This document shows positions 1-4,770 of a stretch of 4,770 nucleotides of DNA, one piece after another. Under the pieces are notes generated by a model. That model was given only the letters and a program-made list of their open reading frames with translations. It ran no database searches and was not told the origin of the DNA. Source of the DNA: a virus. Taxonomy: Duplodnaviria > Heunggongvirae > Uroviricota > Caudoviricetes. The stretch is taken from the IMG/VR virus record IMGVR_UViG_2663763159_000004; one strand, 5' to 3'. Each line of letters starts with the position of its first letter. Positions within the stretch are counted from its first letter, which is position 1. Made by a program: the position numbers and the translations under genes.

Positions 1-119
1 AGAGGTACACCGACAAGCGGCATCGACGCACACACTCCCTCTGGCGTCACCGGGCATGGCACGCATCTGCCTTTACGGGGATTTACAACGATTTGGCCGC
101 CGCATCGACCTTCGAGTGA
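1..119 (+). CDS. K: Probable 3' end of tail tip assembly protein K (5'-truncated by the window edge), overlapping the start of I
   Basis: Frame 3 is open from the window edge to TGA at 117-119 (translation ...AFTGIYNDLAAASTFE*). In lambda, K and I overlap by about 100 nt in different frames; here the lambda-equivalent I start (about nt 14-17) to this stop is about 106 nt, the same geometry. The I-J spacer (60 nt) also matches lambda exactly. Identity inferred from synteny and overlap geometry, not from recognising the K sequence itself. Confidence 0.45.
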   Translation, partial: RYTDKRHRRTHSLWRHRAWHASAFTGIYNDLAAASTFE

Positions 120-664
120 AAACGGGGTCCGAAGCCATCCGGGCGCTGGCCATGCAGATCCCGGCGTTTCGTCAGAAACTGAGCGACGGCTGGTACCAGG
201 TACGCATTGCCGGGCGTGATGCAGGTGAAACCGAATTGTCTGCCCGTCTTAATGAGCCGCTGGCAAATGGTGCCGTGATCCACATCGTGCCGCGTCTGGC
301 GGGAGCTAAAAGTGGCGGTGTGTTTCAGGTGGTGCTGGGGGCGGCGCTGATTGCGGTGGCATGGTGGAACCCTGTGGGCTGGCTGGGTGCCGCGGCTGTA
401 TCGGGCATGTATGCGGCAGGGGCCAGTATGATCCTGGGCGGAGTGGCGCAGATGCTGGCACCGAAAGCCAGGACGCCCACGGCAGCAAGTACAGATAACG
501 GCAAACAGAACACCTATTTCTCCTCACTGGATAACATGGTTGCCCAGGGCAATGTTCTGCCCGTTCTGTACGGTGAAATGCGCGTGGGGTCGCGGGTGGT
601 CTCTCAGGAGATCAGCACGGCAGACGAAGGGGATGGTGGTCAGGTTGTGGTGATTGGTCGCTGA
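56..664 (+). CDS. I: Tail assembly protein I (lambda gpI family); start uncertain, frame open upstream to the window edge
   Basis: 202-aa ORF from ATG 56 to TGA 662-664. Translation (MARICLYGDLQRFGRRIDLRVKTG...KQNTYFSSLDNMVAQGNVLPVLYGEMRVGSRVVSQEISTADEGDGGQVVVIGR) matches my recollection of lambda gpI nearly residue for residue at both ends. Lies immediately upstream of J, as in lambda. The reading frame continues upstream of ATG 56 (..QAASTHTLPLASPG-MAR..) with no stop, so the true start may be upstream or outside the window. Confidence 0.85.
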   Translation: MARICLYGDLQRFGRRIDLRVKTGSEAIRALAMQIPAFRQKLSDGWYQVRIAGRDAGETELSARLNEPLANGAVIHIVPRLAGAKSGGVFQVVLGAALIAVAWWNPVGWLGAAAVSGMYAAGASMILGGVAQMLAPKARTPTAASTDNGKQNTYFSSLDNMVAQGNVLPVLYGEMRVGSRVVSQEISTADEGDGGQVVVIGR

Positions 665-682
665 TGAAAAACGTTTTATGTG

Positions 683-702
683 AAACCGCCTCCGGGCGGT
701 TT
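683..702 (+). promoter_or_regulatory. Perfect 8-bp hairpin with a 4-nt loop in the I-J intergenic spacer; possible attenuator or translational-control element
   Basis: AAACCGCC (683-690), loop TCCG (691-694), GGCGGTTT (695-702): the arms are exact reverse complements. It is followed by an interrupted T-rich tract TGTCGTTT (703-710). It sits 19 nt after the I stop and ends 10 nt before the J Shine-Dalgarno. I recall a near-identical hairpin at the same place in lambda. Confidence 0.4.
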
Positions 703-724
703 TGTCGTTTATGGAGCGTTAGGA

Positions 725-3700
725 ATGGGTAAAGGCAGCAGTAAGGGGCATACTCCGCGCGAAGCGAAGGACAACCTGAAGTCCACGCAGTTGCTGAGTG
801 TGATCGATGCCATCAGCGAAGGGCCGGTTGAAGGTCCGGTGGATGGATTAAAAAGCGTGCTGCTGAACAGTACGCCAGTGCTGGACACTGAGGGGAATAC
901 CAACATCTCCGGCGTCACGGTGGTGTTCCGGGCCGGTGAGCAGGAGCAAACACCGCCGGAGGGATTTGAATCCTCCGGCTCCGAGACGGTGCTGGGTACG
1001 GAAGTGAAATACGACACGCCGATCACCCGGACCATCACGTCGGCAAACATTGACCGACTGCGTTTTACCTTCGGCGTGCAGGCACTGGTGGAAACCACCT
1101 CAAAGGGGGACAGGAATCCGTCGGAAGTCCGCCTGCTGGTTCAGATACAACGTAACGGTGGCTGGGTGACGGAAAAAGACATCACCATTAAAGGCAAAAC
1201 CACCTCACAGTATCTGGCCTCGGTGGTGGTGGGTAACCTGCCGCCGCGCCCGTTCAATATCCGGATGCGCAGGATGACGCCGGACAGCACCACAGACCAG
1301 CTGCAGAACAAAACGCTCTGGTCGTCATACACCGAAATCATCGATGTGAAACAGTGCTACCCGAACACGGCACTGGTCGGCGTACAGGTGGATTCGGAGC
1401 AGTTCGGCAGCCAGCAGGTGAGCCGTAATTATCATCTTCGCGGGCGCATTCTGCAGGTGCCGTCGAACTATAACCCGCAGACGCGGCAATACAGCGGTAT
1501 CTGGGACGGAACGTTAAAACCGGCATACAGCAACAACATGGCCTGGTGTCTGTGGGATATGCTGACCCATCCGCGCTACGGCATGGGGAAACGTCTTGGT
1601 GCGGCGGATGTGGATAAATGGGCGCTGTATGTCATCGGCCAGAATTGCGACCAGTCGGTGCCGGACGGCTTTGGCGGCACGGAGCCGCGCATCACCTGTA
1701 ACGCTTACCTGACCACACAGCGCAAGGCGTGGGATGTGCTCAGTGATTTCTGCTCGGCGATGCGCTGTATGCCGGTATGGAACGGGCAGACGCTGACGTT
1801 CGTGCAGGACCGACAGTCGGATAAGGTGTGGACCTATAACCGCAGTAATGTGGTGATGCCGGATGATGGCGCGCCGTTCCGCTACAGCTTCAGCGCCCTG
1901 AAGGACCGCCATAATGCCGTTGAGGTGAACTGGATTGACCCGAACAACGGCTGGGAGACGGCGACAGAGCTTGTGGAGGACACGCAGGCCATTGCCCGTT
2001 ACGGTCGTAACGTCACGAAGATGGATGCTTTTGGCTGTACCAGCCGGGGGCAGGCACATCGCGCCGGGCTGTGGCTGATTAAAACAGAACTGCTGGAAAC
2101 GCAGACCGTGGACTTCAGCGTGGGTGCCGAAGGGCTTCGCCATGTACCGGGCGATGTCATTGAAATCTGCGATGATGACTATGCCGGTATCAGCACCGGT
2201 GGGCGCGTGCTGGCGGTAAACAGCCAGACCCGGACGCTGACGCTCGACCGTGAAATCACGCTGCCATCTTCCGGCACCACGCTGATAAGCCTGGTTGACG
2301 GGCAGGGGAGTCCGGTCAGCGTGGAGGTTCAGTCCGTCACCGACGGCGTGAAGGTAAAAGTGAGCCGTGTTCCTGACGGTGTTGCTGAATACAGCGTATG
2401 GGGGCTGAAGCTGCCGACGCTGCGCCAGCGACTGTTCCGCTGCGTGAGTATCCGTGAGAACGACGACGGCACGTATGCCATCACCGCCGTGCAGCATGTG
2501 CCGGAAAAAGAGGCCATCGTGGATAACGGGGCGCACTTTGACGGCGACCAGAGCAGCACGGTGAATGGTGTCACGCCGCCAGCGGTGCAGCACCTGACTG
2601 CCGAAGTCACCGCAGACAGCGGGGAATATCAGGTGCTGGCGCGATGGGACACACCGAAGGTGGTGAAGGGCGTGAGCTTCCTGCTCCGTCTGACCGTGAC
2701 AGCGGATGACGGCAGTGAGCGGCTGGTCAGCACGGCCCGGACGACGGAAACCACTTACCGCTTCACACAACTGGCTCTGGGGAACTACAGGCTGACAGTC
2801 CGGGCAGTAAATGCGTGGGGGCAGCAGGGCGATCCGGCGTCGGTATCGTTCCGGATTGCCGCACCGGCAGCGCCGTCGCGGATTGAGCTGACGCCGGGCT
2901 ATTTTCAGATAACTGCCACGCCGCATCTTGCGGTTTATGATCCGACGGTACAGTTTGAGTTCTGGTTTTCGGAAACGCGGATTACCGATATCAGGCAGGT
3001 TGAAACCACAGCCCGCTACCTTGGCGCGGGGCTGTACTGGATAGCCGCCAGTATCAATATCAAACCGGGCCATGATTATTACTTTTATATCCGCAGTGTG
3101 AACACCGTTGGCAAATCGGCATTCGTGGAGGCCGTCGGTCGGGCGAGCGATGATGCGGAAGGTTACCTGGATTTTTTCAAAGGAGAGATAGGGAAAACAC
3201 ACCTGGCTCAGGAGCTGTGGACGCAGATTGATAACGGTCAGCTTGCGCCTGACCTGGCTGAAATCAGGACGTCCATTACGGATGTCAGCAATGAAATCAC
3301 GCAGACCGTCAATAAGAAACTGGAAGACCAGAGTGCGGCAATTCAGCAGATACAGAAGGTTCAGGTTGATACAAATAATAACCTGAACAGCATGTGGGCT
3401 GTGAAGCTGCAGCAGATGCAGGACGGACGCCTTTATATCGCGGGTATTGGTGCCGGTATTGAGAACACCCCTGACGGCATGCAGAGTCAGGTGCTGCTGG
3501 CGGCAGACAGGATTGCGATGATTAATCCTGCGAATGGCAACACAAAGCCGATGTTTGTTGGGCAGGGCGATCAGATATTCATGAACGACGTGTTCCTGAA
3601 ACGCCTGACGGCTCCCACCATTACCAGCGGCGGTAATCCTCCGGTATTTTCCCTGACACCGGACGGGCGGCTGACGGCGAAAAATGCCGATATCAGCGGT

Positions 3701-4204
3701 AACGTGAATGCGAACTCCGGTACGCTCAACAACGTTACGATAAATGAAAACTGTCAGATTAAAGGGAAACTGTCAGCCAACCAGATTGAAGGCGATCTCG
3801 TTAAAACAGTGGGCAAAGCTTTCCCCCGTGACTCCCGTGCACCGGAACGGTGGCCATCAGGGACCATTACCGTCAGGGTTTATGACGATCAGCCGTTTGA
3901 CCGGCAGATTGTTATTCCGGCGGTGGCATTCAGCGGCGCTAAACATGAGAGAGAGCATACTGATATTTACTCCTCATGCCGTCTGATAGTACGAAAAAAC
4001 GGTGCTGAAATTTATAACCGAACGGCTCTGGATAATACGCTGATATATACGGGTGTTATTGATATGCCTGCAGGCAGTGGTGTAATGACACTGGAATTTT
4101 CTGTATCGGCATGGCTGGTAAATGGCTGGTATCCCACAGCAAGTATCAGCGATTTGCTGGTTGTGGTGATGAAGAAAGCCACTGCAGGCATCACGATTAG
4201 CTGA
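725..4204 (+). CDS. J: Host specificity protein J / central tail fibre (tail tip attachment protein, lambda gpJ family), 1159 aa, with a divergent C-terminal receptor-binding region
   Basis: Long ORF ending at TGA 4202-4204. ATG 725 gives the N-terminus [34 protein letters not shown]..., which matches lambda gpJ as I recall it, and GGAG at 713-716 is a Shine-Dalgarno 8 nt upstream. The ORF track starts at a GTG at 680, which lies inside the hairpin and has no SD, so I prefer 725. Residues 1 to about 820 (through ...[18 protein letters not shown]) read as near-identical to lambda J; the rest diverges apart from one conserved block ([24 protein letters not shown]). Confidence 0.95.
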
Positions 4205-4271: not shown

Positions 4272-4770
4272 ATGCGTAAATTATGTGCTGTTATTTTGTC
4301 CGCAGTAGTCTGGCAGGTCGCCGCTGCTACGCCAGCGAGTGCAGCAGAACATCAGTCCACGCTGAGCGCGGGGTATCTCCATGCCTCGACGAACGTTCCC
4401 GGTAGTGATGATCTGAACGGGATTAACGTGAAATACCGTTATGAGTTTACGGACGCGCTGGGGCTGATTACGTCCTTCAGTTATGCCAATGCTGAGGATG
4501 AGCAAAAAACGCGCTACAGCGATACCCGCTGGCATGAAGATTCCGTGCGTAACCGCTGGTTCAGCGTGATGGCGGGGCCGTCTGTACGCGTGAATGAATG
4601 GTTCAGCGCGTATGCGATGGCGGGTGTGGCTTACAGCCGTGTATCGACTTTCTCCGGGGATTATCTCCGCGTAACTGACAACAAGGGGAAAACGCACGAT
4701 GTGCTGACCGGAAGTGATGACGGTCGCCACAGCAACACGTCTCTGGCGTGGGGGGCTGGCGTGCAGTTTA
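4272..4770 (+). CDS. lom: Lom outer membrane protein (Ail/Lom/OmpX family beta-barrel; lysogenic-conversion moron), 3'-truncated by the window edge
   Basis: ATG at 4272-4274 with SD GAGAGG (4261-4266) 5 nt upstream. The frame is open to the window end. Translation MRKLCAVILSAVVWQVAAATPASA|AEHQSTLSAGYLHASTNVPGSDDLNGINVKYRYEFTD...RWHEDSVRNRWFSVMAGPSVRVNEWFSAYAMAGVAYSRVSTFSGDYLRVTDNKGKTHDVLTGSDDGRHSNTSLAWGAGVQF closely matches lambda Lom as I recall it. It has an N-terminal signal peptide with an AxA cleavage motif and sits directly after J, as in lambda. Confidence 0.9.
   Translation, partial: MRKLCAVILSAVVWQVAAATPASAAEHQSTLSAGYLHASTNVPGSDDLNGINVKYRYEFTDALGLITSFSYANAEDEQKTRYSDTRWHEDSVRNRWFSVMAGPSVRVNEWFSAYAMAGVAYSRVSTFSGDYLRVTDNKGKTHDVLTGSDDGRHSNTSLAWGAGVQF

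Follow-up and report, generated by a model that had tools for sequence, protein, structure and literature searches.

A probable exchangeable cassette between the FNIII domains and the receptor-binding domain of gene J in a lambda-like prophage

Results

Gene J and its segments

The DNA considered here is a 4,770-nucleotide (nt) stretch of the IMG/VR virus record IMGVR_UViG_2663763159_000004 (Caudoviricetes), hereafter the window, which covers the last part of the tail-tip module in a lambda-like prophage, with gene I, gene J and the beginning of an Ail/Lom-family gene. The open reading frames (ORFs) of the window, together with the annotation of matching phage and E. coli records, follow the order K - I - J - lom of the lambdoid tail module. 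Gene J encodes the tip attachment protein and central tail fibre, and a sequence-only reading of the window had proposed that its near-identity to lambda stops at the motif DFFKG, gives way to a different linker and later resumes. To describe the end of the gene, we divided the J tail into five segments: A, the end of the second FNIII domain (FNIII-2); B, from DFFKG to MWAVK; C, from MWAVK to QGD or QGN; D, a conserved block; and E, the receptor-binding region. The features, with the evidence for each, are as follows.

725-4204, plus strand: gene J, tip attachment protein and central tail fibre, 1159 amino acids (aa), ATG at 725 (MGKGSS...)
2870-3178, plus strand: second Ig/FNIII domain of J (FNIII-2, aa 716-818), lambda-type (Pfam PF24489 at aa 716-818; identity profile)
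3167-3183, plus strand: left crossover interval CTGGATTTTTTCAAAGG (LDFFKG codons), common to long and short alleles and to both upstream types (three-way comparison)
3185-3391, plus strand: cassette part B, predicted allele-specific lower alpha-helical shaft, 69 aa (41 in lambda), ending NNNLNS (alignments; gap between Pfam Ig_J_second and Phage_Tail_Tip)
3233-3319, plus strand: residues without a lambda counterpart, aa 837-865 (phmmer against solved lambda J chains; MAFFT gap at the same spot)
3392-3571, plus strand: cassette part C, predicted allele-specific beta-prism top/central straight fibre, ending PMFVGQGD (alignments; linkage to part B)
3572-3754, plus strand: conserved block D, ending NVTINENC; right cassette boundary and putative recombination bridge to the receptor-binding domain (identity to lambda; between-class equal to within-class divergence)
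3755-4201, plus strand: receptor-binding region, type RBD1, a separate module (Pfam Ig_GpJ_C at aa 1029-1159)
56-664, plus strand: gene I, tail tip assembly protein I (ORF; matching phage and E. coli records annotate it as tail assembly protein I)
4272-4770, plus strand: start of an Ail/Lom-family outer-membrane protein gene, running off the window (translation; annotation of matching records)

The mechanically called J ORF spans 680-4204, and the lambda-equivalent start is the ATG at 725. All six Pfam families expected of J passed their cut-offs, in the order FNIII-A_GpJ, Phage-tail_3, Ig_J, Ig_J_second, Phage_Tail_Tip and Ig_GpJ_C, and both order and coordinates matched lambda J, identifying the product as a lambda-type tip attachment protein. 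An ORF of 52 aa at 3228-3386 in another frame was ignored, as it is unsupported and falls within the J reading frame. The gene I frame is open from window base 1 (…AASTHTLPLASPGMARICLYGD, window 1-160), and its real start is possibly upstream of the listed nt 56.

Identity to lambda collapses after DFFKG and returns at QIFMNDVF

We compared the window with lambda J from NC_001416. Over the first 820 residues 801 were identical (97.7%), as were 2361 of the 2460 bases at nt 725-3184 (96.0%), and the last 154 bases of this tract (nt 3031-3184) matched lambda at every position. Identity in sliding 60-nt stretches then fell from 0.98 (3125-3184) to 0.22-0.35 (3185-3334), and blastn placed the same break at nt 3190, restarting at 3391 with 77% identity. 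A change from 154 identical bases of 154 to unalignable sequence is far beyond chance. Both the near-lambda identity up to about residue 820 and the switch directly after DFFKG that had been read from the sequence thus hold, and uniform identity to lambda along J was not seen. The blastn alignment of window 1-3190 to lambda contained nine gap openings.

The divergent segment is longer than its lambda counterpart, as the sequence-only reading had recognized: from DFFKG to MWAVK the window has 69 aa and lambda 41 (+28 aa), and the whole J protein has 1159 aa against 1132 in lambda. Part B is only 14% identical to lambda, and its Q/N-rich character was also borne out, with nine Q, seven N and seven T among the 69 residues compared with no Q and two N among 41 in lambda. 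Part C is closer, at 60% aa and 67% nt identity. Re-convergence begins at QIFMNDVF, nt 3572, one base from the position of about 3573 given from sequence alone, and sliding identity is back at 0.90-0.95 over 3545-3664. Block D is 90-95% identical to lambda in DNA and 56 of its 61 residues are the same; sliding identity drops again after about 3725, in the receptor-binding domain, and the match is lost after about 3755.

A second, smaller mosaic patch lies upstream of the DFFKG junction. Within FNIII-2, a patch of about 55 nt (window 2975-3030) is 77% identical to lambda between flanks of 95-100%, and other loci carry either version. Smaller patches of this kind imply that exchange is pervasive in J here.

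In J genes with the DFFKG junction the block exists as two discrete alleles with single-base edges

We next turned to other J genes. Queries with C-terminal sequence (409 aa and 520 aa) returned only near-identical E. coli fragments that were uninformative for mosaicism, and so 80 IMG/VR loci were picked solely for their similarity to the 101 aa that precede the junction; 80 more were picked by the whole C-terminus (C-terminal 520 aa). The anchors EGYLDFF[KR]G and FMNDV used to place the segments were relaxed because of variants such as FMNEVFLKY. The resulting sets comprised 156 loci with the DFFKG junction and 123 distinct J tails (IMG/VR loci and lambda).

Across the 156 loci the stretch from DFFKG to MWAVK was either 41 or 69 aa, and no other length was observed. 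The block from DFFKG to QIFMNDVF fell into exactly two discrete classes among the 123 distinct tails, with no intermediates, and linkage between parts B and C was complete: 75 tails were long in both, 48 were short in both and none was mixed. Segments A and D formed one class each. Between the two classes DNA divergence was 0.27-0.44 over 3392-3571 (the earlier part of the cassette being unalignable), compared with 0.02-0.11 within classes, and both upstream of 3184 and downstream of 3572 the between-class divergence equalled that within classes.

The edges of the block are sharp steps at conserved boundary sequences, at 3183/3184 on the left and 3571/3572 on the right when viewed at single-base resolution in DNA. 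The left edge was placed by comparing the window, lambda and long-allele loci with a different upstream end (the QPSDDAS type). The last site at which the window agrees with lambda and not with the QPSDDAS/long type is nt 3166, and the first difference between window and lambda is nt 3184, leaving the 17-nt tract CTGGATTTTTTCAAAGG (3167-3183), common to all types, as the crossover interval.

Assortment with the neighbouring segments was free on both sides. The lambda-type upstream end was paired with 62 short and 25 long alleles, and in the loci chosen only on the upstream 101 aa, receptor-binding type RBD1 stood next to 9 long alleles and 10 short ones, and RBD2 next to 4 and 27, respectively. 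Neither the upstream FNIII-2 type nor these receptor-binding types are thus confined to one allele, and all four combinations of the four-gamete test are present, which implies that the block has recombined repeatedly with both of its neighbours. Two discrete classes, undifferentiated flanks, four gametes and a 17-nt crossover tract agree with the modular recombination in the tail fibre that the sequence-only reading had suspected. Together, these data indicate that nt 3185-3571 (J aa 821-949) very probably form one allele of an exchangeable cassette in lambda-like J genes, that the window carries the commoner, long allele of the shaft and prism top, and that this allele was joined to its present neighbours by recombination. 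The long allele would have come to adjoin the lambda-type FNIII-2 by homologous recombination with a crossover in CTGGATTTTTTCAAAGG, and the QIFMNDVF...GGNPP block from nt 3572 may have served as the bridge to independently exchanged receptor-binding domains. No Chi site was found in the window on either strand.

Base composition does not mark the junction

The sequence-only reading had also described the divergent segment as visibly AT-richer than upstream J, and in overall value this is correct: GC content is 0.483 in 3185-3391 compared with 0.598 in J aa 1-720. The difference is no signal of the junction, however, as sliding GC shows no step at about 3183. The fall from about 0.60 begins near nt 2885-2950, some 300 nt before the junction and within lambda-identical sequence. 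In the 300 nt before the junction GC is 0.523 and GC at third codon positions (GC3) 0.590, and GC3 in the block is 0.594; the equivalent block in lambda itself has a GC content of 0.512. With the same GC3 on either side and the drop already under way upstream, there is no compositional step at 3183, and we rejected composition as evidence of foreign origin. The AT-richness reflects a protein rich in Q, N, T, K and I and is no foreign-DNA signature.

By homology, the cassette maps to the shaft and prism top of the central fibre

The segment is not well described as a linker, the label first given to it, since its position corresponds to the alpha-helical shaft and beta-prism top of the central fibre. 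In lambda, J residues 809-861 form an alpha-helical shaft, a three-helix bundle that lies under and clamps the FNIII-2 trimer and is followed by the beta-prism of the "central straight fibre" and then the receptor-binding domain (Ge & Wang 2024, PMC11101478; PDB 8IYK/8XCI). On LamB binding this shaft flips: residues 809-840 shorten and wrap the prism top and residues 841-861 turn into additional beta strands, after which the FNIII domains move apart and the tube is opened (PMC11101478).

The window block occupies the corresponding place: it follows FNIII-2, precedes the conserved prism block and is colinear with lambda 809-861. Pfam Ig_J_second covers aa 716-818 in both proteins and Phage_Tail_Tip begins at aa 872 in the window and 845 in lambda, so that the Pfam-free gap between them is 53 aa in the window and 26 in lambda (+27). 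With phmmer against solved lambda J chains (8iyk, 8xci and others), window aa 801-836 aligned to lambda 801-836 and aa 866-960 to lambda 838-932, leaving aa 837-865 unmatched as an insertion between lambda residues ~836 and ~838; MAFFT placed it identically. The extra 28-29 residues, equivalent to four heptads, thus fall exactly between the two helical parts of the lambda shaft, and by homology they would extend the second of these, the part that refolds. Lambda gpJ and the window both keep the motifs xIxxxHLxxEL and MWAVK...AGIG and the Pfam architecture of the whole protein; unlike lambda gpJ, in which the shaft is E/K-rich, the window segment is Q/N/T-rich, with a Gly-Pro break and the additional residues.

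Hydrophobic periodicity in part B was 3.5-3.67, with the peak at 3.6-3.67 in the window and 3.5 in lambda, as in an amphipathic helix, and both periodicity and direct reading of the long allele indicated a Gly/Pro break (NGQLAP), after which come some seven heptad-like repeats. AlphaFold2 (AF2) monomer models placed helices at aa 826-836 and 844-876 from the single sequence (predicted local distance difference test score, pLDDT, 41.7) and at aa 811-823 and 841-854 from a 26-sequence alignment (pLDDT 55.1); in the latter, part C was modelled as beta strands with pLDDT 58-77. By homology, the cassette would comprise the lower alpha-helical shaft and the beta-prism top, joining the tail-tip FNIII domains to the receptor-binding domain. 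It may thus be the mechanical and trigger part of the fibre and refold on receptor binding as in lambda. The complete linkage of parts B and C is most simply explained by a mutual fit in the refolded state: co-adaptation would be natural here because, in the open state of lambda, part B folds back onto part C and extends it.

Related fibres differ in shaft length

A search of 1.84 billion representatives returned 567 relatives. In the aligned J-like fibres, the interval from the end of FNIII-2 to MWxVK measured 41 aa in the lambda type; the window type and divergent relatives (55-72% identity) had 69 aa, and other fibres 76, 108 (a cluster including Burkholderia phage BcepGomr), 122, 185-222 or 409 aa; the lambda shaft is the shortest among them. 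These fibres share the start of the segment, xIxxTxLxQxL..ID, and its end, NSAAIQQ...GKLSAMWxVK. Over the 25 aa preceding MWAVK, resemblance to distant family members is 36% for the long allele and 20% for the lambda allele, which would place the long allele nearer to the family consensus, although this is suggestive only, given that the relatives were retrieved with the long allele as query.

The central fibre of F-type pyocins is homologous and likewise has a trimeric helical shaft followed by a beta-prism (F2: PMC13455828, PDB 25vf), and the F2-pyocin fibre 25vf_A gave a weak phmmer match to window aa ~859-955 (E=5e-4). In the F7 pyocin, a 163-residue coiled coil is reported to convert to a beta-prism when the target is bound and so to drive penetration, and the same has been predicted for many siphophage fibres (preprint PMC12874032). 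The pyocin shaft is far longer than that of the window, given the 163-residue switching segment, and the F2 shaft bears side fibres. The strand pattern SxSxxMxxLxS of the F7 pyocin had one relaxed match in the window block when inspected by eye and none that was clear. The possibility that the Gly-Pro kink is a dock for side fibres, as on the F2-pyocin shaft, was rejected for lambdoids: the side fibres of Ur-lambda sit elsewhere, at the collar at the gpV-gpM junction.

The long allele is common in E. coli and also present in isolated phages

Of 5426 complete E. coli genomes, 3616 carried the long allele, at 7152 places in total, and 2650 carried the short, lambda-type allele, at 4275 places. 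The lambda version, against which the sequence-only reading compared the window, is the minority allele. At 94-99.5% DNA identity, the long allele was found in phage 21, cdtI, mEp460, Ayreon, VT1-Sakai, many Shiga toxin (Stx) phages and the PhiR isolates, the last with hosts recorded as E. coli C, K-12 or ECOR13. Its presence in isolated phages means that it works in viable virions. When one genome per species was scanned, E. coli, E. ruysiae, E. albertii and Shigella had the long allele; two Citrobacter species and an Escherichia sp. had the short one.

Over its whole length the window was 99.9% identical to several E. coli chromosomal prophages and 94-95% identical to the phages vB_EcoS-640R1 and PhiR55_1. 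The J proteins of phage 21, cdtI, mEp460, Ayreon, VT1-Sakai/Stx and vB_EcoS-640R1 have the same long cassette as the window; many long-cassette phages differ from it in the FNIII-2 end or in the receptor-binding domain, and the exact J combination of the window was found at 99.9% only in some E. coli chromosomes.

Several records stood apart. The long cassette was frameshifted in Shigella flexneri SFBU0723 (L170:1501-2154) and E. coli ECMA0423 (L186:1501-2145), indicating decaying prophage J genes. A "Collinsella" metagenome-assembled genome (MAG; L164) had a long-allele J fragment on a 1350-nt contig. In assemblies of unrelated species (L172-L182, L187 and L188), lambda-identical J segments lay on low-coverage contigs, three of them of about 48.4-48.5 kb (Pseudomonas sp. 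30_B, Pseudomonas sp. NFX15 and Shewanella canadensis) and others from Bradyrhizobium, Kitasatospora, Neobacillus, Oceanobacillus, Leeuwenhoekiella and a Chromatiales MAG; these are almost certainly contamination with lambda control DNA and not prophages.

Discussion

The pattern at this junction could in principle have arisen without any exchange, through fast local divergence in place accompanied by an 84-nt insertion or deletion in one lineage. Residual similarity at the ends of part B does show the alleles to be homologous and thus to descend ultimately from one ancestor. Acceleration of the rate in place would, however, give graded edges and intermediates, and none were seen: divergence rises from 0% to unalignable within a few bases, and the classes are separated by 0.27-0.44 against 0.02-0.11 within them while their flanks are undifferentiated. 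The same lambda-type flank is moreover found on both alleles, and the combinations of segments are incongruent. We consider divergence in place very improbable, marginally more so than the proposal that the block is part of the host-range determinant, travels with the receptor-binding domain and helps to set the receptor. The block does belong to the C-terminal third of J, the part in which specificity is located, and 70 of the 75 unique long tails carry RBD1, but that sample is biased, and in the sample chosen on upstream sequence only the types are mixed (RBD1 with 9 long and 10 short alleles, RBD2 with 4 and 27). A conserved 183-nt block without between-class differentiation separates the cassette from the receptor-binding domain. 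Furthermore, the A8 and 1A2 gpJ chimeras, fused at lambda aa 964, switched receptor to OmpC while keeping the lambda shaft (Brodel et al. 2024, PMC11338833). A host-range role is accordingly very improbable as well, and we conclude that the cassette is not the receptor-specificity determinant.

The least probable account, to which we give almost no weight, is that the block is a targeted hypervariable region such as the variable repeat of a diversity-generating retroelement. Tail-fibre genes are typical targets of these elements, but the block exists as two fixed, highly conserved alleles and not as adenine-focused scatter. Neither a reverse transcriptase gene nor a template repeat near J was found within the window, which holds no template-like repeat of the block of template length: the longest direct repeats in it span 22-33 nt with 71-82% identity, and of these just D1 and D2 (31-33 nt, 71-73%, chance-level) have a copy inside the cassette.

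Recombination of a shaft and prism-top cassette therefore remains by far the most probable explanation, and several points weigh against parts of it. The samples of loci were selected by similarity to the window, so that their counts are conditional frequencies. A third lineage exists in E. coli, with 69 aa that are 72% identical to the window cassette and the upstream ends ...YLELFRE or ...YLDFFRG (P0142/P0144/P0146); the 90% cluster of P0142 has 523 members and falls outside the DFFKG-anchored census, so that "two alleles" is a statement restricted to J genes that have the DFFKG junction. The linkage of parts B and C would also follow if absent homology inside the cassette suppressed crossovers, which makes co-adaptation one explanation among others. 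On the structural side, the long allele has no solved structure. Both AF2 monomer models are of low confidence over aa 819-889 (pLDDT 30-46) and uninformative about the shaft, so that the putative assignment of the extra residues to a helical shaft draws only on periodicity and on the homologous flanks.

That J genes are mosaic is textbook knowledge for lambdoid phages. The junction in the window is ordinary mosaicism involving the common allele of a known structural module; literature and databases already contain the protein, its domain and the allele itself as well as the phenomenon, although we found no paper that describes this cassette with its boundaries. What the analysis provides is a set of base-precise natural boundaries (3183/3184 and 3571/3572) for a second swappable module of J, upstream of the module through which lambda particles have already been retargeted. 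The A8 and 1A2 chimeras swap only the receptor-binding domain, and their fusion point lies inside the conserved block that is the right-hand bridge of the natural cassette, while the window junction is the other, upstream module boundary. The receptor-binding domain RBD1 of the window is 41% identical to the LamB-binding domain of lambda and 59% identical to the OmpC-binding A8 domain (PDB 9wca), its closest solved relative; the A8 domain itself occurs naturally as receptor-binding type 3, for example in locus L085.

The lambda shaft, the only one with a solved structure, is thus the shortest and the less common version. For those who build J chimeras or extend the trigger mechanism of lambda to Stx and other prophages, this means that most natural relatives have a shaft that is 28 residues longer. 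More speculatively, the shaft and prism-top cassette might be a co-adapted fold-switch unit whose lengths (41, 69, 76, 108 and up to 409 aa) set the stand-off of the ejection trigger and the energy stored in it, with the polymorphism kept by selection and not neutral. We regard this as rather unlikely, though less so than any of the alternatives to recombination considered above. If it were true, long and short alleles would be under selection, for example by differences in the thickness of the surface layers of their hosts, and the natural alleles would offer a ready length series for studying how a non-contractile tail turns receptor binding into the opening of the tube.

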